This document shows positions 8,889-52,421 of a stretch of DNA of 64,000 nucleotides, piece by piece (the stretch's first letter is position 1; each line of letters opens with the position of its first letter). The notes under the pieces are model-generated. The model saw only the letters and a program-made list of their open reading frames with translations. It did not search any database and was not told the origin of the DNA. This DNA is from Lysobacterales bacterium (GTDB lineage Bacteria > Pseudomonadota > Gammaproteobacteria > Xanthomonadales > SZUA-5): positions 300 through 64,299 of the forward strand of contig JALHMG010000029.1 in assembly GCA_022844135.1 (NCBI GenBank), read 5' to 3'. A program made the position numbers and the translations under genes.

Positions 8889-11800
8889 CTACTCGAACCC
8901 GTTTCGGAACAGCCCGCGCAGGTCGGGACCGTCGGTGGCGACGTTCGACTGCAGGTCCGGGTCGGTGTACGGTGCCGGAAGGGTGGCCGAGACGAGCAGG
9001 CTTACGGGCGTCTCCGGTGTCGCGGCGACGGTGGCGGTGAGCACGAAGGTGACGCTGGAACCGGTGGGCAGGTCGATGGGCTCGATCAGCGCCAGTCCAT
9101 TGCCATTGGCAGCACAAACGCCGCCATTCTGGCTGGTGCAGGTCCAACTCGCCGCCGTGAAATCCGGGCCGAGCGTGCTGTCGAGGCGCACATCGGCGAC
9201 GCCCGAGGGACCGGTATTGCGGACCACAATCGTGTAGGTGGTTGGCATGCCGCCGGTGACGTAGCTGGTGCCGTTGGTTACAGTGACGACGACATCGGCC
9301 ACTGGCTGATCGGTCGGAATCACGCTGGCAGCCACGCTCGTGGCGCCGCTGCCAACCTCGTTGCGTGCGGTTACATGGCAGAGATAAAGCGTGCCGTTGG
9401 TCAACCCGATCACAGTCACTGGGGACGTCGCGCCCGTGGCTGTCACGCTGCCGGGCATGCACTGCACGGTGTAGTCCAGTATCGGCAGACCGCCGCTGTT
9501 AGTCGGCGGCGCGAACCGGAGGCTCGCCGACGCGTTTCCGGCGGCGGCACCGAGCAAACCGGGTGCGCCCGGTACGGTCGCTGGCGTGACGCTGGCCGAG
9601 GGCGCCGAGGGCAGGCTGTCGCCGATCGCATTGGTGGCGATGACGGTGCAGGTGACCGGTGTGCCGTTGGTGAGGCCGGTCACGACGAGCGGTGACGACG
9701 AGCCGCTCTGCGACTGCCATGCGCAGGTTGCGGTGTAGCCGGTGATCGCGCTGCCGCCGTTGTCGGTCGGCGGCACGAAGGCGACGCTCACCTGCGCGTT
9801 ACCGGGCGTAGCGACAACGCCGGTGGGCGCGCCGGGCACGGTTGCTGGTGTGACGCTGGCGGACGGTGCGGAAGCCGCGCTGTTGCCGATCGCATTGGTG
9901 GCGATCACGGTGCAGTTGACGGGCGTGCCGTTGCTGAGGCCGGTCACGACGAGCGGCGGGGCGGCGCCGCTCTGCGACTGCGATCCGCAGGTCGCCGTGT
10001 AGCCGGTGATCGCGCTGCCGCCGTTGTCGGTCGGCGGCACGAAGGCGATGCTGACCTGGGCGTTACCGGGCGTAGCGACAACGCCGGTGGGTGCGCCCGG
10101 CACGGTCCCCGGGGTGACGCTGGCGGACGGTGCGGAAGCCGCGCTGTTGCCGATCGCATTGGTGGCGATGACGGTGCAGGTCACCGCCGTGCCGTTGCTG
10201 AGGCCGGTCACGACCAGCGGCGACGCCGTGCCGTTCTGCGACTGCGAGCCGCAGGTGGCGGTGTAACCGGTGATTGCGCTGCCGCCGTTGCTGGTCGGCG
10301 CGACGAAGGCGACGCTGACCTGCGCGTTACCGGGCGTAGCGACCACGCCGGTGGGTGCGCCCGGCACGGTCGCCGGCGTCACGCTGGTCGAGGGCGCCGA
10401 CGGAGCGCTGTTGCCGATTGCATTCGTGGCGATCACGGTACAGGTGACCGGCGTGCCGTTGGTGAGGCCGGTCACGACCAGCGGCGAGGCGGCGCCGCTC
10501 TGCGACTGCGAGCCGCAGCTTGCGGTGTAACCGGTGATCGCGCTGCCGCCGTTGCTGGTCGGTGCGACAAAGGCCACGCTGACCTGGGCGTTGCCAGCCA
10601 CGACGCCGCTGATCGTCGGGGCACGCGGGACGGTGGTGCCGATGGTGATCTGGAAAGACTGGGTGGCACTGCCGGCGACATTGTTGCGGGCCCTGATGCT
10701 TCCGCCATAGGTGCCGAGCGCGGTCGGTGTACCGCTGATCACCGCGCCGTCCAGGGTCAGGCCGGGCGGCAGGGTGCCGGAGTCCAGCAGGAAACTCGCG
10801 GCCGGCAGGCCCGATGTGGTCAGCGTATGGCTGTAGGGCACGCCGAACAGACCGCCCGCGGGCGGGTCGCTCGTGTAGGCGGGCGCGCGTCCGCCGAGGC
10901 TGACAACGTGCCCCCCCAGTGTGTAAGAGTTAGCTGCGCCACCCAGGGTCGTGACCCCCACGATGGAATGGGTCGCTGTGCTGATGCGAGTGAATCGACG
11001 GCTGCCGAAGACATAGACCTCGCCGCCATCGGCGGACACGTCGACGCCCTGCACGCTGGAACCCGATACCGGTACCGTCGCCAGCACGGTGAGCGTGGCG
11101 GCATCGATCACCGCAAGCTGCGGGCTGGACTCGCTGACCACGTACACACGCCGGCTGTCTCGACTCACGACGACCCCTCTTCGGCCCGCGGCCGGGACGG
11201 CAACGTTGCCCACGACGCTCAGGCTCTCGACGTCGATCACGGTTATGCGATCGTTGAGCCGTTGGGGTGCATAGACGCGCCGTCCGTCTGGGCTGATGGC
11301 TAAAAACCTCATATCCGAGACGGCAATATCGGCGATCACCCGCTGCGCGGCGGTGTCGATCACCTTGATGGACGAGCCGCCAGTCACAAACAACCGCGAC
11401 CCGTCTGGCGTGATGGCCAAAGCAAAGGGTGCGACGAAACCGCCGATGGTCGCGATCACGGTGTTGCTGGCCGCATCAAGAACCGCTACGCCATTCCCTG
11501 TTGTGACGTAGACCCGCGTGCTGTCGGGCGATACCACGGCGCCTTGGGTCCAACTGCCCATCTCGACGCGTGCGATGGGCGCGCGAGTCAGGGTGTCGAT
11601 CACGTGGAGGCTCCCTTCGTAACTGGGCAGATACACGCGCGCGCCGTCGGGGCTTACGGCGGCGATACCATCGGGCGCGTTCGGCAGGGCGATGCTCTGC
11701 ACGACCGCGCCGGTGCTGAGATCCACGACCGCGACCGAGGCTGGATCGGAAATCGGAACGTACGCGAAGGCGCCTGGCAGCCCGGGCGTGACCGTGTTGG

Positions 11801-14453
11801 AAGCCGCCGAAGGCAGCCCGGTCGCAGTCACGGTGCAGTTCACCGGCGCGCCGTTGATCAGGCCGATCACCGAAATCGGCGATGCGCTGCCACTGGCACT
11901 GCGTGCGCCGCAGGTCGCGGTGTATTGGGTGGGTGGCAGGGTCACGTTGTTCGGGGGCACATTGAACGAAACGTGCACCTGGCCGTTTCCTGCCGTCGCG
12001 GTCACGCCGGTGGGCGTCGCCACTTGCAGTTCCAGGGCGCCCATGTCGCTGCCATTGCCGCCGCTGGCATTGGCCAGGTGCGAGAAGTCGATCGGGCGCG
12101 GCAGCCCGCGGCCATCGACCGCGCTCCCCGGGCCCGCGGCGTCGATGATCGGGCTGTCGCTGAGTGGCGCATGGGTCCGGGAATGGCCACCGTTGTCGGC
12201 CAAGGGCGCGAGGCGCGCCGGTACGCCCAGCAAGTTGCCGACCAGGCTGGGCGAGTTCGGTCTGAAGCTGGTGGCGAAGGGGTCGCCGATCAGGTTGTAG
12301 CCGAAGGACGTGAAGTTGCCGCCCGCATCCGGTGCCTGGGCCACCGTGCGTGTATTGTCGGCGATCACGCTGCCGCGCAGGTTGACGATGGCATCGAACT
12401 CGGCGGCGATGCCGCCGTTGAACTGGGCCGTATTCAAGGTCACGGTGGCGTGCGTCAGCGTGGTGGTGCCGGTGCCGCCCAGGTACATCGCGCCGCCGTT
12501 GTCGCCCGTGTTGCCGCTGAAGGTGGTGTGGGTCAGTGTTGCGCTGCCGTAGCTGTTGAGACCGCCGCCGATCGTGGCCCGGTTGCCGCTCAGGCTCACG
12601 CGATCCAGCACCAAGGTGGCGCCGCTGGGATTGCCGATGCCGCCGCCCGGGCCGGTGGCGATGTGGTTCTCGATACGGCTGTCGCGAATGGTGGCTGTCT
12701 TGCCAGGCTCGTTGAACAGGCCAGCGGAGTAATTGGCCCGGCAGCCCGACAAACGGCTGCGCGTGAGGGCAAGGGTGCCGTTGTTGTGGATGCAGCCGCC
12801 GCCGTTCGCCTGGCTGTCGTCGACCTGGATCTCGTTGGCATTGAGGGTGCCCAGATTGACCAGGATGGCACCACCGCCGAGGTTGGGCCCGGGATTGCCA
12901 CGGGTGAAGCGCATGCCGCTCAGGTGCAGCGTGGCCGGCGCGTCGACGTTGAGGTGGCGGCGTTGGTTGTTGGCGTCGAGCGTGAGCAGCCCGGCGCGCG
13001 GACCGAGGATCGTCAGCGTCTTGTTTACCACCAGCGTGCTGCCCAGCGTGATCGTCTGCGGATGATCGAAAAGGGGCCGCGCGAAGCTGATGACATCCCC
13101 GGGCATCGCATCGGCAATCGCCTGACGCAGGCTGCCGGCACCGCTGTCCTGTGCGTTGGTCACGACCACCGACCCCAGTTCGTAGGCGCCGATGTCAACG
13201 GCGCCGCCACGGCTGCGGGCGAAGCCGGCACCGCGCTGGTCGTTGGCCAGTCCCACACCCGGAAAGTCGCCGCAGCCGCTGGTGTTGAGGACGCATCCGG
13301 AACCCGCATCACGGGCAGGACTGTCCAGGTTCAAGGCAAGGGTCCGCGTGGCGCCGCCGTTGTCGGCCAGCGGGCCAACGCGTGGATCGGTGTTGTAGAT
13401 GTCGGTACCGGAAAGGTTGCCCTCGACATTGGCACCAACCCGGCTGCGGATCAGGTTGTGGCCGAGCGAGTAGATGCGGCCGAAGATGTCCGGGCTGGCG
13501 CCGGTGTTGTTGGCAATGATGGTGTTGACGACCTGGGTGTCGGAGGACGGATAGACATGCAGTCCGCCACCCTTGACGCCCGAATTGCCGACGATGGTGC
13601 TGTTGGCGATGCGCACCGGACCACCCAGCAGAAGAGCGCCACTCTCGGTGCTCTGGAAGGTGCGGTTGCCCACGAACGTCGAGTTCTCGATCCACAACGG
13701 TGCGCCGGACTGGATCGCCGCGGCGTACAACGATTCGTTGCCCTCGAACAGGGAGCCGCGGACCCGGAGTTCGCCGTCGGCCTTGATGGCCCCGAACTGG
13801 CCCAAGGTTCGCCCCGGCCCTGTCGGGTCAAGTACCCCGTTGCCGCGGAACACTGAGTCGGTGATCAGCAGTCGGCTGGGGAACTGCGGAGTGCCGACAC
13901 CCACGTGGATGCCTCCGGCACTGGAGGGGCCGTAGTTGCCCTCGAACAGCGTGCGGACGATCGTGACTTCACGAGCGCGAGTGTGGATCGCGCCGCCCGA
14001 GCCGCCCGAGCGATTGAAGCGAAACTGGGAATCCTGGATCAGCAACGCATGGCCCGGGCCGATGGCGATGGCGCCGCCGTCCGAGCCCGAAAACAGGTTC
14101 TCAAAGATCGCATTGCGGATCACGACCTCCAGAATGGTGTTGTTGTCGATGACCAGTCTCGGCAAGCGCGCGCCCGCGGCGTCGATGGTCACGCTTCGGG
14201 TGATTCCGGCACTGTCCACCGCGGTTGTTGCCACGGCGAATACGATGGTGTCGCCCGCCGGGGCGAGCCGGCTGATCGCACCCGGAAAGCTGCAATCGGC
14301 CGGCGCCGAAGTGCAGGCATTGAGCGCCGGATCCGCCGAGGTGCTGTCGACGGTCCACGTGGCGGCATGTGTCGTGCCGATGGCGAATGCGAGCAGCAGG
14401 AAGAGCGTATGTGCGATGAGGCGCGTTGAAACGCGGACAGTGACGTTGGACAT
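8889..14453 (-). CDS. Large (~1854 aa) secreted surface protein: two beta-helix/choice-of-anchor Q modules, FN3, YVTN beta-propeller, Ig-like, tandem FN3, DUF11, LFRNGFE tail
   Basis: GGAG RBS before ATG 14453 and a signal peptide. CSLREA-like CSFPGAI, two LADNGG..T...DIGAYE/DMGALE blocks, SPDGxRVY repeats, GNAQVSVAF repeats, TYTIVVRNTGP. The ORF-track extension to 15011 overlaps the kinase and is rejected. Confidence 0.9.
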   Translation of the reverse strand: MSNVTVRVSTRLIAHTLFLLLAFAIGTTHAATWTVDSTSADPALNACTSAPADCSFPGAISRLAPAGDTIVFAVATTAVDSAGITRSVTIDAAGARLPRLVIDNNTILEVVIRNAIFENLFSGSDGGAIAIGPGHALLIQDSQFRFNRSGGSGGAIHTRAREVTIVRTLFEGNYGPSSAGGIHVGVGTPQFPSRLLITDSVFRGNGVLDPTGPGRTLGQFGAIKADGELRVRGSLFEGNESLYAAAIQSGAPLWIENSTFVGNRTFQSTESGALLLGGPVRIANSTIVGNSGVKGGGLHVYPSSDTQVVNTIIANNTGASPDIFGRIYSLGHNLIRSRVGANVEGNLSGTDIYNTDPRVGPLADNGGATRTLALNLDSPARDAGSGCVLNTSGCGDFPGVGLANDQRGAGFARSRGGAVDIGAYELGSVVVTNAQDSGAGSLRQAIADAMPGDVISFARPLFDHPQTITLGSTLVVNKTLTILGPRAGLLTLDANNQRRHLNVDAPATLHLSGMRFTRGNPGPNLGGGAILVNLGTLNANEIQVDDSQANGGGCIHNNGTLALTRSRLSGCRANYSAGLFNEPGKTATIRDSRIENHIATGPGGGIGNPSGATLVLDRVSLSGNRATIGGGLNSYGSATLTHTTFSGNTGDNGGAMYLGGTGTTTLTHATVTLNTAQFNGGIAAEFDAIVNLRGSVIADNTRTVAQAPDAGGNFTSFGYNLIGDPFATSFRPNSPSLVGNLLGVPARLAPLADNGGHSRTHAPLSDSPIIDAAGPGSAVDGRGLPRPIDFSHLANASGGNGSDMGALELQVATPTGVTATAGNGQVHVSFNVPPNNVTLPPTQYTATCGARSASGSASPISVIGLINGAPVNCTVTATGLPSAASNTVTPGLPGAFAYVPISDPASVAVVDLSTGAVVQSIALPNAPDGIAAVSPDGARVYLPSYEGSLHVIDTLTRAPIARVEMGSWTQGAVVSPDSTRVYVTTGNGVAVLDAASNTVIATIGGFVAPFALAITPDGSRLFVTGGSSIKVIDTAAQRVIADIAVSDMRFLAISPDGRRVYAPQRLNDRITVIDVESLSVVGNVAVPAAGRRGVVVSRDSRRVYVVSESSPQLAVIDAATLTVLATVPVSGSSVQGVDVSADGGEVYVFGSRRFTRISTATHSIVGVTTLGGAANSYTLGGHVVSLGGRAPAYTSDPPAGGLFGVPYSHTLTTSGLPAASFLLDSGTLPPGLTLDGAVISGTPTALGTYGGSIRARNNVAGSATQSFQITIGTTVPRAPTISGVVAGNAQVSVAFVAPTSNGGSAITGYTASCGSQSQSGAASPLVVTGLTNGTPVTCTVIATNAIGNSAPSAPSTSVTPATVPGAPTGVVATPGNAQVSVAFVAPTSNGGSAITGYTATCGSQSQNGTASPLVVTGLSNGTAVTCTVIATNAIGNSAASAPSASVTPGTVPGAPTGVVATPGNAQVSIAFVPPTDNGGSAITGYTATCGSQSQSGAAPPLVVTGLSNGTPVNCTVIATNAIGNSAASAPSASVTPATVPGAPTGVVATPGNAQVSVAFVPPTDNGGSAITGYTATCAWQSQSGSSSPLVVTGLTNGTPVTCTVIATNAIGDSLPSAPSASVTPATVPGAPGLLGAAAGNASASLRFAPPTNSGGLPILDYTVQCMPGSVTATGATSPVTVIGLTNGTLYLCHVTARNEVGSGATSVAASVIPTDQPVADVVVTVTNGTSYVTGGMPTTYTIVVRNTGPSGVADVRLDSTLGPDFTAASWTCTSQNGGVCAANGNGLALIEPIDLPTGSSVTFVLTATVAATPETPVSLLVSATLPAPYTDPDLQSNVATDGPDLRGLFRNGFE
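9570..10635 (-). repeat. Four near-identical 264-bp (88-aa) FN3-coding tandem repeats
   Basis: The TVPGAP/TVPRAP boundary recurs at about 9567, 9831, 10095, 10359 and 10623. Antisense ORFs at 9742/10006/10270 show the same 264-bp period. Confidence 0.9.
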
Positions 14454-14495
14454 CGTGGGGCTCCGGCAATCCGGGCCGCGCAATACGGCCCATGC

Positions 14496-14530
14496 TGGAG
14501 CTAGCGAATTGGGAAGGGCAGAACTGTCAT
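14496..14530 (-). promoter_or_regulatory. Putative ECF promoter, class 1 (TGACAGT-N16-CGCTAG), upstream of the large surface protein
   Basis: Minus strand ATGACAGTT-CTGCCCTTCC-CAATTCGCTAGCTCCA matches 17365-17399 at both ends with identical spacing. Confidence 0.7.
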
Positions 14531-17244
14531 CGCGTCTGCAGGCGGGCGATCCGGGCTCGCCACGGCGAGTCGGCGACGATGCGGCCATCGATGTCGTCGA
14601 GGATCTGGCTGGCCAGCACCTGCGCTCCCGTCCTTCCCTGCGCGCCACCGCGCCGCGCCAGCCATTCGGCGCGGTCCAGTCTGGCCAGCGCCACGCGCGG
14701 ATCGCCGGCACTGACGGCCTCCTTCCAGGCTGCCTCAGCGGCAAGGAACGCATCGACGATGGCTGCCTCGTCATCGCCATCCGACCGCAGCAGCGCGCGC
14801 ACCTGAAGACGATGGGCATGCGTGGGCGTCGCCACGTCGAGCTTGGTGTCCTCGGCCAGGGCCAGCATCCGGTCTGCCTCTGCCCGCCGGCCAAAGCGCC
14901 AGTCAGCTTCCGCCAGCAGCACCCGCGTCTGTGCCAGGTCGACTGGACTTCCGGGTTGCTGTGCCGCCAGCACGCGCTCGGCCGATGCCAGCACGCGACT
15001 CGCCTCGGCATACGAAGTCATCGCCAGCAGCACTTGGCCGTGGTTGGTGCGCGCATTGGCGATGGCGGGGCTGCCCTCGCCCCAGGCGCGAGTCAGCGTC
15101 GCCAGTGCGCGCCGAAAGCTGCTGTCGGCCGCCTCCAGCGCTCCCGCTCGGAATTGGCTGCGCCCTTGGTTCTGAAGCAGCACCGCATGGTGCAGCGTGT
15201 CGGCGCCGAATTTGCGCTCCGCGAGCGCGACGGCTTCCGCGTACAGGGGCAGTGCCTCTTTACTGCGGCCGTCCGCATCGAGCACTGCGCCCAGCTCCGA
15301 CAGCCGCCAGGGCGTGTTGACATCATCCGCGCCGTGCAGCGCACGACGCCGTTCCAGTGCGTCCCGCAAGAGCGATTCCGCCGCTGGCAATTGCTTGCGC
15401 GCGACCAGCACGCGGGCCAGCACTTCCTGTGCATTGACCGTTTCGACACTGTGTTCGTCGTGAGCACGGAAAAGTGCATAGCTGCGACGCAGGTGTCGCT
15501 CCGCCTCGTCCAATTCACCCAACAGGTGCAACCCGCCACCCAGATCGAGCAGTGCAAAGGCGAGATCGGTCGCGTTCGGACCGTTGCTCTCCGCGTCGGC
15601 TAACGCCGACCGTAATAACGCCAGTCCTTCGGCAGACTGCGGCGTGTTCAACAGAGTCTGGCCGAGCAGTCGCATGGCCTGTTGTCGCTCGCCGGCCGGA
15701 GCATCCGGGCCCAGCGCCTGGTACAAGGCGAGCGCCTCGCGGGCGTGCGTCAAGGCTGCGTCGGTGGCGCCGTTCTGGCGTACGTGGCCTGCCAGCCGCA
15801 GCGCACTGCGTGCCAGCGGCAACGGGCGTCCCAAGGTGCGCTCGATCGCCACCGCGCGTTCGAAGCTGTTCTGCGCCGCCTCGGGAATCCGCAACTGCGT
15901 TTGGACGTTTGCCAGCGTGGTGTACAACTCCGCCTGCATTGCCGGCTGCCCGGCGAGCTCAGTTTCGATGCGCGCCAGCGCCTGTTCGACCAGCTGGCTG
16001 ACAGGCACTTCCGCGCCGCCAGCGTCTGGATTGGCGCCGTCCAGTATCGAGACCACGAAATCGCTGACCTGGCGGGCTGCCTGCTCGGCCGCCGTTGCGC
16101 GATCGCGTTCGGCGAGCGCCCTTTGTTCGGCGGCCAGCGCGCGATCGCGGTCACGCGCCAGTTGCACCGTGAAGCCGATGACGACCAACGCGAACAGGGC
16201 CGAGGTCAACGCCCATGGCCACCGGCGTTGCAACCATTTGCGGGTGCGATAGCCGACGTGCGCTGGAACGGCCTGCAGCGGCAAGTGCTCTAAATAGCGC
16301 TGCAGGTCTGCGCCGAGCGCGGCGATCGATTCATATCGTGCCGAGGACTCGGTGGCCGTCGCCCGCGCCACGATGGCGCGCAATTCGTGGTCGATAGCGA
16401 TGCCGGACTGCAGCGCCAGATGTTCGATCAGTCGCCCGAGGCTGTAGACGTCTGTGCTGGTACTGATGGCGCCGCCCGATTGCTGTTCGGGGCTGGCGAA
16501 TCCCGGCGTGAAGGCGCGCGCCCGTTGTGAGGTTGAGGAGGCGGGCCCGCGGGCGGCATCGCCGAGCACGCGGGCGATACCGAAATCGAGCAGAAACGGA
16601 TGCCCATCGGCTCGCACCAGAACATTGCTGGGTTTGAGATCGCAGTGGACCACAAGCCGTGTATGGGCGTAGGCCACCGCTCCACAGATCGGCAGCATCA
16701 AGCGCAACAGCGCCCGCGCGTCTGGACGCCGTTCGCGACACCAGCGGTCGATCGGCATGCCTTCCAGATATTCCATCACCAGGAACGGCTGCCCTTGTGG
16801 TGTGGTGCCGCCATCCAGCAAGCGTGCGATGTTCGGGTGTGCGAGGCCGGCCAGTATCTGGCGTTCCCGGGCCAGGTATTCCAGAGCCGCCGCGCTCGGC
16901 AGCCCACGCAACACCTTGACGGCCGCATCTTGCTCGAAATGTCCATCGCTGCGGCGCGCTGCGTAAACCGTGCCCATGCCGCCTTCGCCGATTTTGTGCG
17001 CCACCGTCCAGGCGCCGAGCTGGGTTTGAGGCGCTGGTGTGTCGGAGGCCAAGGCGCCCATCAATGCCATCACCGGCGCATTGACGTCCTGTGTGGTCGG
17101 AGACAGCGACAACATCGAACGCACCAGGGCGAGCAGCTCCGGGGCCGCGTCGCTGGCGGCGAGCGCACGTTCCTGTTCGGCCGGATCGAGATCGACCAAC
17201 GCGTCGTACAGCGCGCGAACTCGCCCGTACGCCTCAAGGTTCAC
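14527..17244 (-). CDS. Hanks-type Ser/Thr protein kinase with TM helix and C-terminal TPR repeats
   Basis: GEGGMGTVY, AVK, HCDLKPSN (non-RD), DFG, ASPEQ. TM WPWALTSALFALVVIGFTV followed by TPR-like helices. GGAGG RBS before GTG. Confidence 0.92.
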   Translation of the reverse strand: MNLEAYGRVRALYDALVDLDPAEQERALAASDAAPELLALVRSMLSLSPTTQDVNAPVMALMGALASDTPAPQTQLGAWTVAHKIGEGGMGTVYAARRSDGHFEQDAAVKVLRGLPSAAALEYLARERQILAGLAHPNIARLLDGGTTPQGQPFLVMEYLEGMPIDRWCRERRPDARALLRLMLPICGAVAYAHTRLVVHCDLKPSNVLVRADGHPFLLDFGIARVLGDAARGPASSTSQRARAFTPGFASPEQQSGGAISTSTDVYSLGRLIEHLALQSGIAIDHELRAIVARATATESSARYESIAALGADLQRYLEHLPLQAVPAHVGYRTRKWLQRRWPWALTSALFALVVIGFTVQLARDRDRALAAEQRALAERDRATAAEQAARQVSDFVVSILDGANPDAGGAEVPVSQLVEQALARIETELAGQPAMQAELYTTLANVQTQLRIPEAAQNSFERAVAIERTLGRPLPLARSALRLAGHVRQNGATDAALTHAREALALYQALGPDAPAGERQQAMRLLGQTLLNTPQSAEGLALLRSALADAESNGPNATDLAFALLDLGGGLHLLGELDEAERHLRRSYALFRAHDEHSVETVNAQEVLARVLVARKQLPAAESLLRDALERRRALHGADDVNTPWRLSELGAVLDADGRSKEALPLYAEAVALAERKFGADTLHHAVLLQNQGRSQFRAGALEAADSSFRRALATLTRAWGEGSPAIANARTNHGQVLLAMTSYAEASRVLASAERVLAAQQPGSPVDLAQTRVLLAEADWRFGRRAEADRMLALAEDTKLDVATPTHAHRLQVRALLRSDGDDEAAIVDAFLAAEAAWKEAVSAGDPRVALARLDRAEWLARRGGAQGRTGAQVLASQILDDIDGRIVADSPWRARIARLQTR

Positions 17245-17329
17245 GACGCCTCCTTAACAACATTGGCGACGCGGCGTTGCGCCAACAGGCGCGAAGACTG
17301 GCCGATTCGTTTTTTGCCTGCGGGCTCAT
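17234..17329 (-). CDS. Possible 31-aa leader ORF overlapping the kinase start
   Basis: AAGGAG 5 nt before ATG 17329; translates as MSPQAKNESASLRACWRNAASPMLLRRRREP. Its stop falls just inside the kinase gene. Confidence 0.3.
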   Translation of the reverse strand: MSPQAKNESASLRACWRNAASPMLLRRRREP

Positions 17330-17364
17330 CCTGGCTCCTTCGCCGTCTCCACATCGGTCCGTGA

Positions 17365-17399
17365 TGAAGCTAGCGGATTGCCGAACGGGAAACTGTCAT
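17365..17399 (-). promoter_or_regulatory. Putative ECF promoter, class 1 (TGACAGT-N16-CGCTAG), upstream of the kinase
   Basis: Minus strand ATGACAGTT-TCCCGTTCGG-CAATCCGCTAGCTTCA; twin of 14496-14530. Confidence 0.7.
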
Positions 17400-17520
17400 G
17401 GCTGGGTCAACTCGTTGCGCGCGGGAGCGATGCGCAACGATGTCGGTGCTTGCGTGGCCGGCCTTGTGCGTGTCCGCGCCAGGGTCGGCGCGGACGCATC
17501 GGTCAATGCCATCGACGAAG

Positions 17521-18087
17521 TCAGCCTTGGCGCAGGTGCTGCTGCACCCAGACGCGTGCGAAACGCAAGTCGCGATCGACCGTCGCCAGCGACAGCTTCA
17601 GCACATCTGCAATTTGCTGCCGGTCCAGGCCGGCGAAGCAATTCAGGTGCAACACATCGGCGCAGCGCGGGTCCAGCGCCGCCAGTTGCGCCAGACTCTG
17701 ATCGAGCGCTACGACATCAGCGACGATCGATTCCTCGCCGCCAATCGCTTCCGACATACTCACCTGGATGTCGCCGCTGCCGCGTTTGGCCGCCTGCCGG
17801 GCGCGGGCGTGATCGACCAGCGCCGAGCGGATGTACAGCGACATGCCCGCATAGAAATGCTCACGGTTCATGAACGCCACGTCGCCGACTGCGATTCGCA
17901 GATACGCTTCGTGCAGCAGGGCGGTGGGCGAAAGCGTGCCTGGCCAGTCGGCTTGCCGCAGGCGCTGCGACGCTATGAGCTTCAGCTCGTCATAGGCGAG
18001 CTCAAAGGCTGCCGCTACAGCATCCTTCTCGCCATCACGCCAGGACTGCAATAGCTGAGTCAGTTCGACATGCGCCGGCGAGGCCAT
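17521..18087 (-). CDS. ECF sigma factor, TIGR02999/ECF43-like (kinase-associated)
   Basis: ELTQLLQSWRDG, AYDELKLIA, TLSPTALLHEAYLR, LVDHARARQAAKRG, TVDRDLRFARVW. Adjacent to a Ser/Thr kinase. Confidence 0.9.
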   Translation of the reverse strand: MASPAHVELTQLLQSWRDGEKDAVAAAFELAYDELKLIASQRLRQADWPGTLSPTALLHEAYLRIAVGDVAFMNREHFYAGMSLYIRSALVDHARARQAAKRGSGDIQVSMSEAIGGEESIVADVVALDQSLAQLAALDPRCADVLHLNCFAGLDRQQIADVLKLSLATVDRDLRFARVWVQQHLRQG

Positions 18088-18289
18088 CGGCAAGGTTCAA
18101 GCACAATTCGGATTCGACGAATGTTCGACGCTATCGCAGGCCAGGGCAAGAGCTGCCGCGTCGTCGGCAGGATCAGCCGACAGTGCTTCGTTGGGACTGA
18201 TCGGCACGGCCATCGATTCGACACGGCTCAGATTTTTGGCGGCCCGTGGCGCATACAATTCAAGCTGATGCCTATCAATGGGAAACCCG

Positions 18290-18772
18290 ATGCGTATGAA
18301 CCCTCGATTCAACCGTCACCGCTATCTTCATCTTGCCGCGCTGATGGTCGCGCTGTGCGTCGCGATGCCGGTCCTTTCCCATGAGGTTATTCCCGAGCAC
18401 GAGGCGGCGGCGGCGCAGCGCCTCAAGGCCGATGGCCCCACCGAGACCGTCGGCGTCGATAAGGTCACGCCGCTTGGCAGCGTATCGCTGGATGGCGAGA
18501 TTTCGGGAGCGGAAGGCAAAGTGCTGCGCGCCCGCGAGTTCGTGCTTGCGCCTGGAGCGACGATCGCAGTACATGAGCACCAGCAGCGTCCAGGGTTGGC
18601 TTACATCCTGGAAGGCGAACTGGTCGAACACCGCAACGACCACCAGGGCCCCATTGTGCGCGGCGTTGGCGCGGTCGCGTTCGAGCGCAGCGGCCTGGTC
18701 CATTACTGGAAGAACGAATCCGGCCGATCCGTGCGTGCATTGGTGGTGGACATTGTCGACACCGGGTCGTAG
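18290..18772 (+). CDS. Secreted cupin-domain protein
   Basis: Signal peptide, LAPGATIAVHEHQQRPGLAYILEGEL, HYWKN. Confidence 0.8.
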   Translation: MRMNPRFNRHRYLHLAALMVALCVAMPVLSHEVIPEHEAAAAQRLKADGPTETVGVDKVTPLGSVSLDGEISGAEGKVLRAREFVLAPGATIAVHEHQQRPGLAYILEGELVEHRNDHQGPIVRGVGAVAFERSGLVHYWKNESGRSVRALVVDIVDTGS

Positions 18773-19108
18773 ACGCCGCATCGCTTATCAACCTGGTGCT
18801 TTTCCTCAACGCGTGTTTCGGCGCGAATCCGGCGAAATAGACGTTGGTGAGTGCGCTTGCGACTGGCGCTCGGTTGTCGTGGGATGTCGCGTGGCTGCGC
18901 GATGGCAGGCAAGAGGTCGCGCCAGTGCTCGATATAGAACGGTGGCCCAGCGCGCGAGCAAGCGCCGGTTCCGGTTCTCGTCTGGCTTGTGAGTCACGGA
19001 CCGCGCTCAATCAACTCGCGGACCCGGCCTGCCGCACGCGCCTACCGATACGGCGCAGACCGGCGCGGCGGGCATGCGCCGGTGCTTGAGATCGGCGATA
19101 GTCCGCAG

Positions 19109-20161
19109 ATGCGTCGCGCGCACGAGTCAGCCCCTGTCCAGCCGCCCATCTGGTTGCCCCTGGGGGCCGGTGCGCTGCTGGCCGGCCTGCTGGCGGTGCT
19201 GGCCCTGCCTCTGTACGGCCACGGCGCCGCGACCTGGTCGCGCACCGTGTTCCTCAGCACTTTGCTGTTGTGGATGCTGCCGCTCACGCTGCTGCAGCGA
19301 GCCTGGTGGCGGCGCGGCTGGGGCATGCGTAGGACCTGGTTGCTGATGCTGCCGCTGACACTGGGCATGGTGCTGCTGACCAAGTGGCTGCACCTGTGGC
19401 CGCAGCGCGCCACGGGCGAGGCACCCGACCTCGCCTGGCTGTGGCGGGGTCTTGAGGCGCCGTGGCTGGGTTTGCTCGCCTATGCCGCGCTGCATGCACT
19501 GATTGTCCATGCCTGGGCCCTGCGCGCGGCGCGCATCCGCGTGCAGCAGGCCGAGCAGTCAGCGCGGGATGCCCAGCTGCACGCACTGCAGCTGCAGTTG
19601 CAGCCGCATTTTCTGTTCAACACGCTCAACGCGATCTCGGCCGAAGTGGGCGAGGGAAGCACGGCGGTGGCGCAGCGGATGCTGGCGCGCCTGGGCGATC
19701 TGCTGCGGGCCACGCTGGAACTGGGTGGTCAACCCACGCACAGCCTTGCCGCGGAGCTGTCTCTGGTCGAGTCCTATCTCGACATCGAACGCGCCCGCCT
19801 GGGCGAGCGCATGCGCCTCGACCGGCAGATCGCGCCAGGGATCCTCGATGCCGAGGTCCCGACCCTGGGCCTGCAGCCCCTGGTCGAAAACGCGGTCCGC
19901 CATGGTCTGTCGCCACGGCGCGCGCCCGGCACGCTACGTCTGCACATCTGGCGCGAGCAGGATACGCTGCGGGTGGACATCGCCAACGATCTGCCCGAGT
20001 CGCTGCCAGTCGCGTCGTCGGGCGGCGGCGTAGGCCTTGCCAATCTGCGCGCTCGCCTGCGCGAACTGTACGGCGCAGCGGCGACACTCGACTGCAGCGC
20101 CGAGCACGCCCAGTTCCGCGTGCAGCTCAGCCTGCCGTGGCGCGCGGGCAGGAGTGGCTGA
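19109..20161 (+). CDS. LytS/YehU-family sensor histidine kinase
   Basis: Several TM helices, LQLQLQPHFLFNTLNAI, YLDIERARLG, LQPLVENAVRHG, GVGLANLRARL. Confidence 0.9.
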   Translation: MRRAHESAPVQPPIWLPLGAGALLAGLLAVLALPLYGHGAATWSRTVFLSTLLLWMLPLTLLQRAWWRRGWGMRRTWLLMLPLTLGMVLLTKWLHLWPQRATGEAPDLAWLWRGLEAPWLGLLAYAALHALIVHAWALRAARIRVQQAEQSARDAQLHALQLQLQPHFLFNTLNAISAEVGEGSTAVAQRMLARLGDLLRATLELGGQPTHSLAAELSLVESYLDIERARLGERMRLDRQIAPGILDAEVPTLGLQPLVENAVRHGLSPRRAPGTLRLHIWREQDTLRVDIANDLPESLPVASSGGGVGLANLRARLRELYGAAATLDCSAEHAQFRVQLSLPWRAGRSG

Positions 20162-20886
20162 TGCGCATCGCCGTGGTCGACGACGAGGCGCCGGCGCGAC
20201 GGGCGATCCTCAACCAGCTGCAGACGCTTGGTCTGCAAGCGACGGCAGAGTATTCCGACGGATGCGCCGCGCTGGATGGGCTGCGCGCCACTCCTGTGGA
20301 TCTGGTGTTTCTCGACATCTCCATGCCCGGAATGGACGGTCTTGATGTGCTGGCCGCGCTGCCGTCCGCCGCGCGGCCGCTCGCCATCCTGCTGACCGCG
20401 CACAGTACGTTCGCCGTGCGCGCCTTCGAGCTGGGCGTTGTCGACTACTTGCTCAAACCGATCGATCCTGTGCGCTTTGCCGAAGCGCTGATGCGCGCCC
20501 GCGAACGCTGGCAATGGCGGGGCAGGGCGCCTGCGCCGACGGCGCCGTCGCCGCAGCGTTTCGCGGTCAGGGTCGGGCGCAGCGAGCACTACGTGGCCAC
20601 CGCGGACATCCGCTGGATCGAGGCCGACGGTGACTACGCGACCTTGCACACGGCCGGTCACGCCTACCCATTGCGCCAGACCCTTCACGAGCTGTCGCAG
20701 CAGCTGGATGCGCGTCAGTTCGTGCGCGTGCACCGTTCGGCCATCGTGCGCGTGGATTGCGTGGCCGAGATCAAGCCGCTGACCAATCGCGACGCGTTGC
20801 TGCGCCTGGACGACGGCACGCCGGTGCGGGTGAGCCGCAGCTACATCGATGCACTGCTCGCGACACTGCAGGCGGTGCGGGGTTAG
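20161..20886 (+). CDS. LytTR-family response regulator
   Basis: MRIAVVDDE, FLDISMPGMDG, DYLLKP, FVRVHRSAIV, VSRSY. TGATG coupling with the kinase. Confidence 0.92.
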   Translation: MRIAVVDDEAPARRAILNQLQTLGLQATAEYSDGCAALDGLRATPVDLVFLDISMPGMDGLDVLAALPSAARPLAILLTAHSTFAVRAFELGVVDYLLKPIDPVRFAEALMRARERWQWRGRAPAPTAPSPQRFAVRVGRSEHYVATADIRWIEADGDYATLHTAGHAYPLRQTLHELSQQLDARQFVRVHRSAIVRVDCVAEIKPLTNRDALLRLDDGTPVRVSRSYIDALLATLQAVRG

Positions 20887-40287: not shown

Positions 40288-42225
40288 TTAGCGGCTGACG
40301 ACGGGCGCGGCCCAATAGAACGGTAAGGTCATCGCCTCGGGGTCGGTCCGCGACCACCACAGCTCGGCGCGTGTCCGCCAGTCGGGTTGGCGATGTCGAG
40401 CCAGCCAGTCGCGCTGGGCGGATGCCAGCGCGATGGAGACGTCGGGCTGCTGCTGGCGCGCTTGATGGAAGGCCAGCATCATGCTCGCGGTCGCGGCATC
40501 GGGCACCGGCCAGAGCGTCGCCAGTACCGAATGCGCGCCGGCGCGATGCCAGGCACGCGCCATGCTCAATGGCCCGCCGCTGGCCAGCGTGCCGCGCTGG
40601 CTCGCGCAACCGCTGAGCACCACCAGCGTCCGTTGTCCCGCATATCGGGCGACCTCATCGTCGTGCAGCCAGCCGTCCTCGCCCTCGCCGGGCGCCAGCG
40701 CGATCATGCTGCGTTTGTCGTCCAGCGGGTGGCGCAGCATGTGCGCCGCGATGTGCACATCGGCATGCGCTGGGAGTGCGCGCAGCGCCGCTTCGCGCGC
40801 CTCGTCTCCGATCAGCAGCGCCGCCTGCGGGTACAACTCGGCGACGGCCCGCGCTTCTCGGCTCGCGCCGCCCAGGCGTCCGGCCGTGCGCGGTGCAGGA
40901 GCGACAGAAGCGCCGGGATCGCCCAGTACCCACAGCGCACTGGGCGTCGGTGTTGCCGGCGCGGTCGCCTCATGCATCCGATCTGCGCGCAGCAGGGCCG
41001 TCTCCTCGATCAGATAACGCCCGGTGCCGGCATCGACGATCAGCGCACCGAACGGCAGTGCGTGCAGCGGCCCGTCGGTCTGGAGATAGACGCGCTGACT
41101 GCCGTGCCGCCATGCGGGCGCAATCAATTGCCGATAGAGCTGCGCGAGACGATGCTCAAGCGCGCCTCGGTCGGCATGTTCGCGTGCCGCAATCAGCAGC
41201 AAAGCGGCGCTCACCGCTTCCTGCAGTTCCGCGTGCGTGAGGCCGATGTCGGCGACGCGAAGTTCGCCGCGGAACGAGGACAACAACAGCGTGCGGCGCT
41301 CGTGCACGACATATGACAGCAGCAAGCTGTGCTCGTCCAGCAACGGCAGTTGCGGCGGCGCACCGCGCATCCGTTGTGCCAACGACAGGGCCGCCGCCAG
41401 ATCGCCGCGATCGGCGGCGCGCTGGATCGCTTCGCGATAGAAAAACGCAAACTGGCCGGCCCACTGCGATTGAACATCGCCGTCGTCGCTTTGCCGTGCG
41501 CGCTCGGCCTCCAGCCGTTCGATTGCCGTCAGCAGCGATCGGTCCGCCGCCTGGGTCTGGCCGCGCGCCGCCTGGATATGGCTCAAGAAAAAGTGCGCAA
41601 CACCTTCAGAGACGCTGCCCGGCGCGTGGCGCTGGCGCAAGGCCAATGCCTCGTCGATCGCAACGCCCGCCGCGGATACCTCGCCGCGAACGATTTCCGC
41701 ATAAGCCAGATAACAGAGGAGCTGCGCTCTCAACAGCGCCGGTAGGTCTGGCTCCAGTGCCGGCAACAGCTCATCGCGGGCGCGGTCGGCTAAACCCATG
41801 GCCAGATAGACAGCCGCGAGCGCGTAGGCGCGTTCGGCCCGTATCGCAACGTTGGCGCTTTGGACGCCCAACAGCGCCGTTTCCGCTGAGCGCAGATCGC
41901 CCTGCTCGAAGCGCGATTGTGCCAGCGCGATGACCGCTCGCTGCTTGAGCGGCGACGTGTCGGACAATCGTGCGCCGTGGTCGTCGAACCAGCGCAGCAT
42001 GCGCTGCTCGGCGAAGACGAACTGGCCGCGACGCAAAACGATGCGCGCCGCTTCCAGGTCGATGGCGGCGGGATCGGTTTGATCGCTCAGGGCCTGAAGT
42101 TGCGCTTCCGCCTCGCCTAAGCGGCGTTGCTCGCTCAGCCGTTCGACCTCCGCCAAACTCGTCGCCCAGAGTGGCGTGAGTGTCGCGCTGGCCAATAGCC
42201 ACAGTGCGATCCGGACGAGGACCAT
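40288..42225 (-). CDS. Secreted TPR-CHAT (caspase-like) protease
   Basis: Signal peptide, TPR-like helices, DGPLHALPFGAL, His in VHIAAH and Cys in VVLSGCAS, ATLWPVPD, PFYWAA. Confidence 0.88.
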   Translation of the reverse strand: MVLVRIALWLLASATLTPLWATSLAEVERLSEQRRLGEAEAQLQALSDQTDPAAIDLEAARIVLRRGQFVFAEQRMLRWFDDHGARLSDTSPLKQRAVIALAQSRFEQGDLRSAETALLGVQSANVAIRAERAYALAAVYLAMGLADRARDELLPALEPDLPALLRAQLLCYLAYAEIVRGEVSAAGVAIDEALALRQRHAPGSVSEGVAHFFLSHIQAARGQTQAADRSLLTAIERLEAERARQSDDGDVQSQWAGQFAFFYREAIQRAADRGDLAAALSLAQRMRGAPPQLPLLDEHSLLLSYVVHERRTLLLSSFRGELRVADIGLTHAELQEAVSAALLLIAAREHADRGALEHRLAQLYRQLIAPAWRHGSQRVYLQTDGPLHALPFGALIVDAGTGRYLIEETALLRADRMHEATAPATPTPSALWVLGDPGASVAPAPRTAGRLGGASREARAVAELYPQAALLIGDEAREAALRALPAHADVHIAAHMLRHPLDDKRSMIALAPGEGEDGWLHDDEVARYAGQRTLVVLSGCASQRGTLASGGPLSMARAWHRAGAHSVLATLWPVPDAATASMMLAFHQARQQQPDVSIALASAQRDWLARHRQPDWRTRAELWWSRTDPEAMTLPFYWAAPVVSR

Positions 42226-42229
42226 GGGT

Positions 42230-42814
42230 CTATTTCACCCGGAAATGGAACGGACCCAGTTCGTCGGCCGCGCAGCTCACGGTCCACAAATAGTCGCCGG
42301 ATGGCAGCGGCGAATCTACGGTCGCACGGCCACCGCGAACCCCGTCGCTGCGCCAGACGCGCTCGCCCGTGGGTCGGCGCACGTCCACGCGACAGATGGC
42401 GCCCGCTGCGATCGTCCAGCGGAACTCGCTCGGCGAGCTGGCGAGCTCGCTGCCGATGTCCGGATAGAGTGCCCCGGCGCCGCCGCGCAGCACCTCGTCG
42501 GCGCCTGGCGGTCGCAACAGCGTCACGATGGTCCCGGCGCCGAGTGCCAGCAGCACACTGGCCGCCAGCGCCCAATGCCGTGGGAAGCGCCTGCGACCAT
42601 CCATCTTGGCGTGTGTCGACCCCTGCGTCTGCAGTCCCAGCTCGATCTGCGCAATCGCCGCGCAGCGCGTGCAGTTCGAAAGCGCCGCCAAGGTGTCGGC
42701 GTCTCCGGCGCCGCGCGTCGCGGCGGCGATTGCCTCGGCACTCGGGCAACCCTTGCCCTCGCGTGGGCACGCGCTCGCGTGCTGCTGAAACGCTGTCGCC
42801 AGCACGTCATTCAT
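42230..42814 (-). CDS. Putative transmembrane anti-sigma factor
   Basis: CPS...NCTRC zinc-finger-like N-terminus, TM WALAASVLLALGAGTIVTLL, VLRGG linker, small beta-rich periplasmic domain. Overlaps the ECF stop. Confidence 0.7.
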   Translation of the reverse strand: MNDVLATAFQQHASACPREGKGCPSAEAIAAATRGAGDADTLAALSNCTRCAAIAQIELGLQTQGSTHAKMDGRRRFPRHWALAASVLLALGAGTIVTLLRPPGADEVLRGGAGALYPDIGSELASSPSEFRWTIAAGAICRVDVRRPTGERVWRSDGVRGGRATVDSPLPSGDYLWTVSCAADELGPFHFRVK

Positions 42815-43307
42815 AGCTCGCTCCCCATTGCTGCAAGGTGGCCTTGAGTTCGTCCAGGCCGCGATACACCAGATTGCGTACGGTTGCCTCGCTCTCGCCT
42901 TCCATGACCGCGATCTGCGCCAGGTCGAAACCTTGCAGATGCAAAGCCACCGGACGTCGCCGACGTTGAGGCAACTGCGCCAGGGCGCGCGCGATCAGCG
43001 CACCCAGCTGCGCAGATCGCGTTTGCGCGTCGGCGTTGTCCGAGACCGCGACATCCTCAGGGAGCGGCTGCGGCGCGCGCCGCAGTTTGCGAATGTGGTC
43101 CACGATCACGCTCATCACCGCACGATGCAAGTAAGACGGCGGATGGACGATGGTGTTCTCGCGCTCCAGCACACGCCACAGCTTGAGACGCACCTCCTGT
43201 TCGATCTCGTCTGCGTCCAGACCCAGCGCCGGCGACACGCGCGAACGTACCAGCGAGCGCAAGGGCTTGCAGAGCTCCGTCAGTAGCGCATCCAGGCGAG
43301 CGGTCAT
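42807..43307 (-). CDS. ECF sigma factor
   Basis: DADEIEQEVRLKLW, SYLHRAVMSVIVDHIRK, ALAQLP, TVRNLVYRGLDELK. Start at ATG 43307 or TTG 43343. Confidence 0.88.
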   Translation of the reverse strand: MTARLDALLTELCKPLRSLVRSRVSPALGLDADEIEQEVRLKLWRVLERENTIVHPPSYLHRAVMSVIVDHIRKLRRAPQPLPEDVAVSDNADAQTRSAQLGALIARALAQLPQRRRRPVALHLQGFDLAQIAVMEGESEATVRNLVYRGLDELKATLQQWGASYE

Positions 43308-43346
43308 CCAGGCATCAAAACACCGCAAAGCCTGTCGCAGCAAGCC

Positions 43347-48981: not shown

Positions 48982-49512
48982 ATGACTGGCGGCAATGCCC
49001 CTTTGCCCGACCATCCGATTGCGGTGGATGCGGCGTTCGAGGCCGACTATCAGCGCCTGAAGGCGATGGCGCATCGGGAGCTGGCGCGCGGTCAGCCGGT
49101 CACTGTCGGCACCACGGAGCTGGTGCACGAGCTGTACCTCAAGCTGGGGAACGACCTGCAGTTCGGCGCGCCCGATCAGTTCTTTACGTACGCCGCGCGG
49201 GCGATCCGGCACATCCTGGTCGACCGCGCGCGGCACCGGCTCAGTTTCAAGTCGGGCGGCGATCGGCTGGCGGTGTCGCTCACTGATCCGGCCGTCGATG
49301 CGGTTGCCGTGGAGCCCGAGCTGGCGCTGCTGCTCGATCGTGCTCTCGACGAGTTGGCGGCGGCGAATCCGCGTGCAGCGAAGGTCGTCGAGCTGCACTA
49401 TTTCGCCGGGCTGGGTCTGGAGAAGGTGGCGCAATTGTTGGGTGTGGTGCGGCGCACCGTCGATCGCGACTGGCGTCAGGCGCGCGCTTATCTCTTATCG
49501 CAAGTGGAGTAG
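48982..49512 (+). CDS. ECF sigma factor, TIGR02999/ECF43-like (kinase-associated)
   Basis: YQRLKAMAHREL, TVGTTELVHELYLKL, AIRHILVDRAR, VVELHYFAGL, TVDRDWRQARAYL. Confidence 0.9.
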   Translation: MTGGNAPLPDHPIAVDAAFEADYQRLKAMAHRELARGQPVTVGTTELVHELYLKLGNDLQFGAPDQFFTYAARAIRHILVDRARHRLSFKSGGDRLAVSLTDPAVDAVAVEPELALLLDRALDELAAANPRAAKVVELHYFAGLGLEKVAQLLGVVRRTVDRDWRQARAYLLSQVE

Positions 49513-49518
49513 CGGTCG

Positions 49519-49550
49519 TGTCGCATTTGCGATTCGGACTGCGTTACTCG
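49519..49550 (+). promoter_or_regulatory. Putative ECF promoter, class 2 (TGTCGCA-N16-CGTTRCTCG), upstream of the kinase
   Basis: TGTCGCA-TTTGCGATTCGGACTG-CGTTACTCG; twin at 52990-53021. The ATG lies 10 nt after CGTT with no SD, so it may be leaderless. Confidence 0.7.
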
Positions 49551-49555
49551 CTGCC

Positions 49556-52318: not shown

Positions 52319-52421
52319 GGCGCAACGACCAGCGCACAAGTCCTCGGACGAAGGGCGTGAGGTTTGACAGCGCCAGGTCGCGAACCTGATCTTACCCTTG
52401 TCTTACGTTGGCAGCGCTGTC

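Follow-up and report, generated by a model that had tools for sequence, protein, structure and literature searches.

The stretch of 64,000 nt analyzed here (the window; positions 300 to 64,299 of contig JALHMG010000029.1, assembly GCA_022844135.1, from a Lysobacterales bacterium) harbors three consecutive genes for an extracytoplasmic function (ECF) sigma factor of 190 aa, a Ser/Thr kinase of 905 aa, and a secreted protein of 1854 aa, which are all located on the minus strand and separated by short gaps. A bipartite sequence motif is present in front of the kinase gene and again in front of the gene for the secreted protein, and comparison with related loci suggests that this motif is the target promoter of the adjacent sigma factor. 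In the following, G000 designates the source genome (5.34 Mb), other G-numbers designate relatives of the same order, and L-numbers designate fetched loci.

The sigma factor, which is of the kinase-linked type, is encoded at 17521-18093 (minus strand). It consists of a single PF07638 (Sigma70_ECF) domain (residues 10-188, 131.4 bits with a cut-off of 21.1), a feature given for ECF43 in the supplement of PMC7826278, and also matched TIGR02999 with 176.4 bits (cut-off 126.15). Its region 2.2 has the uncharged sequence S-P-T-A directly before the LLHEAY helix, and the Thr of this (S/T)-P-T-(A/V) motif was kept in all eight of the closest sigma orthologues. Passages of PMC8999054 and PMC8103513 describe for EcfP that region 2.2 carries an uncharged, Thr-containing S/T motif in place of the acidic DAED, and that phosphorylation would license binding to the core polymerase. 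Published ECF43 members have QTTA or STTA at that place, with the Thr as phosphosite (passages of PMC13147305 and PMC8999054). This hallmark of the ECF43 group, an uncharged S/T motif with a conserved Thr instead of DAED, is seen in the sigma factor of the window, where SPTA takes the place of the STTA of EcfP; the equivalence of SPTA to the QTTA/STTA position was judged from the following helix, and not from an alignment to EcfP or EcfK.

The gene for the Hanks-type Ser/Thr kinase (14527-17244, minus strand) starts with a GTG at 17244 and ends with the stop codon at 14529-14527. The Pkinase domain comprises residues 80-280 (E 5e-30), and four stretches matching TPR_12 follow in the C-terminal part from about residue 440. 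One hydrophobic segment between the Pkinase domain and the tetratricopeptide repeats (TPR), which was read off the translation and not taken from a predictor, probably spans the membrane. A kinase gene at position +1 on the same strand, encoding one membrane helix and extracytoplasmic TPR repeats, is a further hallmark of ECF43 and is thus present at this locus. ECF43 is also marked by the lack of an anti-sigma factor nearby. None of the neighbors of the sigma gene has an anti-sigma Pfam domain; an open reading frame (ORF) of 168 codons at 18275-18781 had no match at all and may not be a gene. The 1854-aa protein (8889-14453, minus strand, ATG at 14453) has a signal peptide as read at its N-terminus, and contains choice-of-anchor Q domains, a YVTN beta-propeller, four fn3 domains, and a C-terminal DUF11 domain.

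The earlier note on this sequence had described two copies of the motif on the minus strand with 23 of 25 flanking positions identical, and this description was borne out. Copies A and B agree in all nine positions at the 5' side and in 14 of 16 positions at the 3' side (both Y positions differ), while only two of ten positions are identical in the core between them. The motif proper is composed of TGACAG, a variable spacer of 17 nt, and CGCTA. Copy A (17365-17399, minus strand, 34.9 bits), the proposed promoter of the kinase transcript, lies within the 276 nt gap between the sigma stop codon (17521) and the kinase start (17244). Its -35 block TGACAG is located at 17398-17393 and, after 17 nt, its -10 block CGCTA at 17375-17371. 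Copy B (14496-14530, minus strand, 37.6 bits), the proposed promoter of the gene for the large secreted protein, has its -35 block at 14529-14524 and, again after 17 nt, CGCTA at 14506-14502. The first three bases of its -35 block are the kinase stop codon (14529-14527), and 49 nt separate the motif from the ATG of the 1854-aa protein.

A degenerate pattern of 31 nt with up to three mismatches matched exactly two sites in the window. The mean number of matches was 0.00 in 100 dinucleotide shuffles, and none of them had two. A short form of the pattern also matched two sites, compared to a shuffle mean of 0.07. The genome-wide scan that the earlier note had suggested revealed three sites for the 15 specified bases at the same spacing in 5.34 Mb, with an expectation of about 0.003, which is an estimate from base composition and not the result of a tool. 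At neighboring spacings no exact site was found in G000. With a weight matrix, the three sites of G000 scored 32-38 bits and the next best site 20.4 bits; the matrix was built on 15 sites from eight genomes, and three of these were the G000 sites that were scored. Since two sites occurred in the window but in no shuffle, and since the genome has three sites that are separated from all others by a large score gap, we concluded that the motif is real and rare and that it is not a dispersed repeat. The third site is located on another contig (C48), and only ORFs of 37 aa and 82 aa follow downstream, the latter without a Pfam match.

To survey the orthologous loci, 401 genomes of the order were searched with the sigma protein and the loci were then fetched. 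Eleven loci comprised a close relative of the sigma factor (53%-72% identity), followed by a kinase and a homolog of the large protein (G000, G024, G127, G238, G220, G141, G003, G050, G280, G148, and G038). The motif was present between the kinase stop and the start of the target gene in all 11 loci, which confirmed the conservation that had been named as a check. Seven loci (G000, G024, G127, G238, G220, G141, and G003) matched the pattern exactly, and one or two mismatches were found in G050, G280, G148, and G038. In the ten loci other than that of the window, the target gene encodes a homologous secreted beta-propeller/fn3/DUF11 protein. The motif was thus conserved in position across genera and families with independent spacer sequences. 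In 12 fetched sigma loci that are paralogous or more distant, the motif was absent from the position after the kinase stop with up to two mismatches allowed; one of these loci (L139) had a match with two mismatches elsewhere in the fetched stretch. In two of the loci with the motif the kinase gene itself deserves a remark: the kinase of G238 (L085, 5347-8011) is split into two overlapping ORFs (579 and 344 aa), possibly due to a frameshift or an assembly error, and the kinase of G220 runs off the contig end, so that the same split could not be judged there.

An alignment of 11 sites from seven genomes (A1) showed TGACAGT and T..CGCT as the only invariant columns. The spacer varied freely in sequence but not in length, with TGACAG and CGCT 17 nt apart in every case. 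The first block was often followed by two or three T residues, CGCTA was preceded by a conserved A/T-T-C/T, and an A was usually present after CGCT. Every conserved site was oriented toward the next gene. The distance from the site to the start, as obtained by reading, was 49 nt for G000_B, 48 nt for G024_B, 47 nt for G127_B, 40 nt for G238_o, 42 nt for G148_o, and 42 nt for G000_A, where the value refers to an upstream ORF and not to the start of the kinase gene. Strain differences at copy B, as seen in other sequencing runs, affected the spacer, one degenerate position of the -10 block, and the leader, which is weakly in favor of a promoter.

When the pattern TGACAGT-N13-WTYCGCT was used for scanning, with the reversed pattern as control, 3 of 27 genomes of the same family had a match (control: one match). 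In the order sample we found 50 sites in 39 of the 401 genomes (control: 12). Ten of the 11 genomes that have the motif together with the sigma, kinase, and target genes accounted for 18 of the 50 sites. The other 32 sites were spread over 28 of 390 genomes, which is about 0.08 per genome and close to the expectation from base composition. Matches in G035, G076, and contig 21 of G003 had no convincing gene context and may be chance matches.

We also compared the occurrence of the motif with the phylogeny of the sigma factors. In a maximum likelihood tree of 47 sigma sequences, the loci with the motif clustered inside a clade of 23 rows (support 100/96). As a label on this tree the motif required two changes, compared to a mean of 10.0 after shuffling, and none of 500 shuffles gave a value as low. 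Four loci of a sister clade (G076, G042, G020, and the second locus of G038; L141, L145, L144, and L146) have a related two-block motif at the kinase stop. This sister motif also begins at the kinase stop codon; its -35 block differs, its -10 block is similar, and its spacing is shorter by one base. A changed -35 block together with a kept -10 block is what divergence of sigma region 4, in co-evolution with its -35 block, would predict. No site of the sister type was found in G000. This genome has 33 PF07638 matches, about 26 of them strong, and most lie directly before the gene of a large Ser/Thr kinase; the two genes overlap or directly adjoin in 15 of 22 paralogous pairs. Sigma factors paired with a kinase have thus expanded strongly in this one genome. 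None of the other paralogous kinase genes of G000 was followed by the motif, and some were followed by loosely similar -10-like strings.

These results make it likely that the motif is the target promoter of the adjacent ECF sigma factor (17521-18093, minus strand), which in turn would be activated by the kinase, with TGACAG(TT) as -35 block, 17 nt of spacer, and CGCTA as -10 block. The earlier note had come to the same assignment, and the two-block anatomy, the position and orientation of the sites, the co-occurrence with the sigma clade, and the contrast to the -35 block of the sister clade all argue for it. Promoters of ECF sigma factors are bipartite with spacers of 14-17 bp; AAC within the -35 block and CGT within the -10 block are typical of the family and not universal (passages of PMC5758882). 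The motif has this bipartite layout with two blocks and a spacer of fixed length within the 14-17 bp range, and its sites have the same orientation as the following genes and lie at a leader distance from them.

In the mechanism that we infer, the sigma gene would have a basal expression, probably from another promoter, since no motif is located before it. The membrane kinase would sense an envelope or extracellular cue through its TPR domain and phosphorylate the Thr of S-P-T-A in region 2.2, and the sigma factor would then bind to the core RNA polymerase. The holoenzyme would start transcription a few bases after CGCTA at copy B, leading to synthesis of the 1854-aa secreted protein. A start at copy A would result in more kinase, so that positive feedback would reach the sensor but not the sigma factor. 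Transcription may also start at the third site on contig C48.

Several observations weigh against this assignment. The motif loci form two groups in the sigma tree and not one clade; the branches that separate the groups are weak, and a single origin is possible. With about 26 sigma paralogues in G000, the choice of the adjacent one is based on adjacency and co-occurrence. Neither G000 nor the orthologous loci had a motif before the sigma gene, with up to three mismatches allowed. The locus of G021, with a sigma factor of 58% identity, did not reveal the motif on its contig of 3,950 bases. Contigs from two metatranscriptome libraries (four runs were compared) covered parts of the sigma and kinase genes and none of the motif copies; these contigs are short pieces of related strains and carry no information on starts, strand, or level. 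The letters typical for ECF promoters were not found, as the -35 block lacks AAC and has TGACAG instead, and the -10 block lacks CGT and has CGCT. There is also no obvious match to the published prediction for ECF43, "GTC in -35 and CAG in -10", as quoted from the supplement of PMC7826278.

The promoter could also be read by another sigma factor, either one of the roughly 25 paralogous kinase-linked sigma factors, by cross-talk or shared specificity, or an unrelated alternative sigma factor. The number of PF07638 proteins in G000 makes this conceivable, the G000 paralogue L018 falls within the same 23-row clade (support 100/96), and G035 and G076 have isolated matches although no motif adjoins their related sigma loci. 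These isolated sites lack a clear gene context, however, and chance would give as many. The motif travels together with this sigma-kinase-target module in 11 of 11 loci and was not found in 24 of the 27 genomes of the same family, many of which carry paralogues. The sister clade, which includes the relatives of L018, has a different -35 block, and G000 has no site for it. We therefore assign a small probability to another sigma factor. A slightly smaller one is given to the motif being an operator of a conventional DNA-binding regulator. A candidate is encoded next door, where a LytS-type histidine kinase (PF06580) and a LytTR response regulator (18989-20883, plus strand) lie divergently beside the sigma gene, and half-sites bound by some LytTR regulators are similar to the ACAGTT inside the -35 block. 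A LytTR binding site consists of a pair of direct repeats, each about 9 bp long, but the motif contains neither an internal direct repeat nor a palindrome spanning both blocks, and the LytS/LytTR pair was present in none of the ten orthologous loci with the motif (within the fetched flanks). For these two reasons, the missing repeat and the missing linked pair, the LytTR operator was rejected. The two-block form with its 17 nt spacer and the differing -35 blocks of the sigma clades are better explained by a sigma factor.

A role of the motif at the RNA level, in processing, stability, or translational control within a polycistronic sigma-kinase-target transcript, would agree with the arrangement of the three genes on one strand with short gaps, and with the lack of room for a terminator between the kinase gene and the motif in 8 of 11 loci. 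In G000, G024, and G127, moreover, the Shine-Dalgarno sequence of the large gene could be occupied by pairing with the nucleotides directly behind the -10 block. The two blocks are not complementary to each other, though, and the spacer varies freely; stable hairpins downstream were not a general feature (mean z -0.8 over 23 sites), and the sites away from the sigma locus lie outside such an operon, one of them in a divergent intergenic region. We consider an RNA element as the sole explanation very unlikely, and an RNA role of the leader could coexist with promoter function. A small repetitive or mobile element appears extremely unlikely, as does a duplication by chance. The two copies are indeed direct repeats that flank one gene at a distance of 2869 bp, yet there are only three copies in 5.34 Mb, their flanks are unrelated, and the core differs. 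A dispersed repeat or miniature mobile element was rejected on account of the three genome copies and the unrelated flanks. The position is also conserved across genera and families with independent spacers, and no shuffle reproduced the two matches.

If the motif is the promoter of the adjacent sigma factor, its distribution indicates what the circuit would control. Direct control of the adhesin-like gene, that is, the gene for the 1854-aa protein, had been postulated, and this is the conserved part, with the motif before the target in 11 of 11 loci. The postulated positive feedback on the kinase would be limited to one lineage: copy A is present in G000 and has counterparts in G024 and G127, where it starts three bases after the sigma stop codon, and it is specific for this lineage (3 of 11 loci). 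The remaining eight loci have no gap between the sigma gene and the kinase gene, which overlap or abut there. The numbers for target and kinase copies suggest that the conserved output is the secreted protein and that feedback on the kinase is an addition of one lineage. Most ECF sigma factors autoregulate. As no copy of the motif is located upstream of the sigma gene, feedback in the present system would act on the sensor kinase only and not on the sigma factor.

Further candidate targets were found in four genomes of another family, in which sites away from the sigma locus precede genes for secreted proteins. These are tandem genes for homologous proteins of about 240 aa without a Pfam match (L084, 8072-9503; L095, 244-1718; L087, 8122-9563; L089, 8041-9521), and the proteins of G148 and G238 are 40% identical (E 4e-49). 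Judged by the sites in front of their genes, the 240-aa proteins are likely a second member of the regulon in these four genomes. The distant site of G148 is located in a divergent intergenic region, so that a promoter is needed there. No homolog of the 240-aa proteins was found in G000.

That the kinase stop codon is part of the -35 block, as the earlier note stated, is correct for copy B and recurs in 8 of 11 loci. Because the kinase TGA lies within the -35 block in these loci, no terminator fits between the kinase gene and the target gene, and read-through is likely. In the window, the leader of the large gene (14454-14502, minus strand) can form an inner GC hairpin (14491-14473) and an outer pairing of bases 14501-14497 with the Shine-Dalgarno sequence GGAGC at 14464-14460. 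This fold had a minimum free energy of -27.2 kcal/mol (z -3.35, 200 mononucleotide shuffles). A nested fold was also predicted for G024_B (z -1.87) and G127_B (z -3.66), and it was not general among the 23 sites, as the mean z given above indicates. In the kinase leader, an upstream ORF of 31 aa (17234-17329, minus strand) starts 42 nt after the -10 block of copy A, with an overlap of 11 nt between its end and the start (GTG) of the kinase gene. An ORF at the same position with a stop just past the kinase start was seen in G000, G024, and G127 (those of G024 and G127 at the matching place in L045 and L083). The peptide sequence was not conserved, and the peptide of G000 was unrelated. The upstream ORF may provide translational coupling, or it may have arisen by chance in GC-rich DNA.

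In this lineage the leader may allow an additional layer of control. With the kinase stop codon inside the -35 block, the target gene would receive read-through RNA as well as RNA initiated by the sigma factor. The latter would lack the bases that can pair with the Shine-Dalgarno sequence if its start lies after them; only the read-through RNA would then have its ribosome site masked. A two-layer gate of this kind, with translationally silent read-through RNA and translated sigma-initiated RNA, together with the upstream ORF, which is conserved in position and coupled to the kinase start, and the exchange of the -35 block between clades, is a speculative and rather unlikely extension. If true, the gate module would also offer a code from which the specificity of these sigma factors, expanded to about 26 in a single genome, could be read.

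Kinase-activated sigma factors of the ECF43 type are widespread, and two systems have been studied. EcfP/PknT of Vibrio parahaemolyticus (ECF43) resembles the present system by the Sigma70_ECF domain and the gene for a Hanks-type kinase directly downstream, as described in passages of PMC8999054 and PMC8103513. According to the same passages EcfP controls polymyxin resistance genes, while the conserved target here is a giant secreted beta-propeller/fn3/DUF11 protein. EcfK/PknS (ECF43) stems from Xanthomonas citri, which belongs to the same order as G000 by the genome sampling used here. Passages of PMC13147305 and PMC6653060 describe features that are shared with the system of the window, namely a sigma factor that is activated by a membrane-spanning kinase, which comprises about 900 aa and has a large portion outside the cytoplasm. 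They further state that a type VI secretion system is turned on by EcfK, for which an additional phosphosite in the linker is required; no type VI secretion system is encoded near the locus described here. The searched passages of PMC13147305 and PMC6653060 gave no promoter sequence for EcfK, in contrast to the defined candidate promoter of our system.

In the typical ECF promoters described in passages of PMC5758882, as in the motif, both the -35 block and the short -10 block are conserved, the latter begins with CG, and T residues come after the former. They differ by an AAC-containing -35 block in place of TGACAG and by CGTA or CGTC in place of CGCT(A). A further difference is that the sigma gene of the window has no autoregulatory copy upstream. 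The ECF43 prediction quoted above is part of the re-classification of ECF sigma factors by Casas-Pastor et al. (2021) and concerns, like the motif, a conserved upstream sequence of the same sigma group (supplement of PMC7826278). It was derived from regions upstream of the sigma genes, whereas the motif described here is longer, is located downstream of the sigma and kinase genes, and belongs to one sub-clade. In the literature on ECF43, EcfK/PknS, EcfP/PknT, and sigma phosphorylation we found no promoter sequence for this branch. This fits to the remark of the earlier note that few target promoters are known for this sigma group, as the quoted passage of PMC7826278 holds the only prediction we met.

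Our comparison thus supports, for one sub-clade of ECF sigma factors that are activated by kinases, a cognate promoter and a small regulon. The motif is well defined and varies in nature, as the different -35 block of the sister clade shows; it represents a directly testable promoter for this sigma branch and provides a way to assign targets in genomes with dozens of paralogous sigma-kinase pairs. The giant secreted beta-propeller/fn3/DUF11 protein would be a first named output of this module. The type of finding, an ECF sigma factor with its cognate promoter and a local regulon, is standard, and the wiring is slightly unusual because feedback would act on the sensor kinase and not on the sigma factor.

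A few other features were observed in the window. About 30 nt after the sigma stop codon, an 8-bp GC-rich inverted repeat with a loop of 6 nt and without a T run is present at 17473-17494 (minus strand). It was read from the sequence, was not detected by the terminator scan, and could lower read-through into the kinase gene. A consensus scan of positions 14200-18500 gave no sigma-70 promoter-like site and two terminator-like sites inside coding sequence, no more than in shuffled sequences, and is therefore uninformative on transcription of the sigma gene. The window harbors a second sigma-kinase pair on the plus strand (sigma gene 49021-49503, kinase gene 49298-52318). A -35 hexamer lies about 55 nt after the stop codon of this second kinase gene (52360-52400, plus strand), has no matching -10 block, and is probably due to chance. 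A second regulatory module is located at 40288-43343 (minus strand) and comprises another ECF sigma factor with regions 2 and 4, an ORF without a Pfam match, and a CHAT-domain protein of 645 aa.

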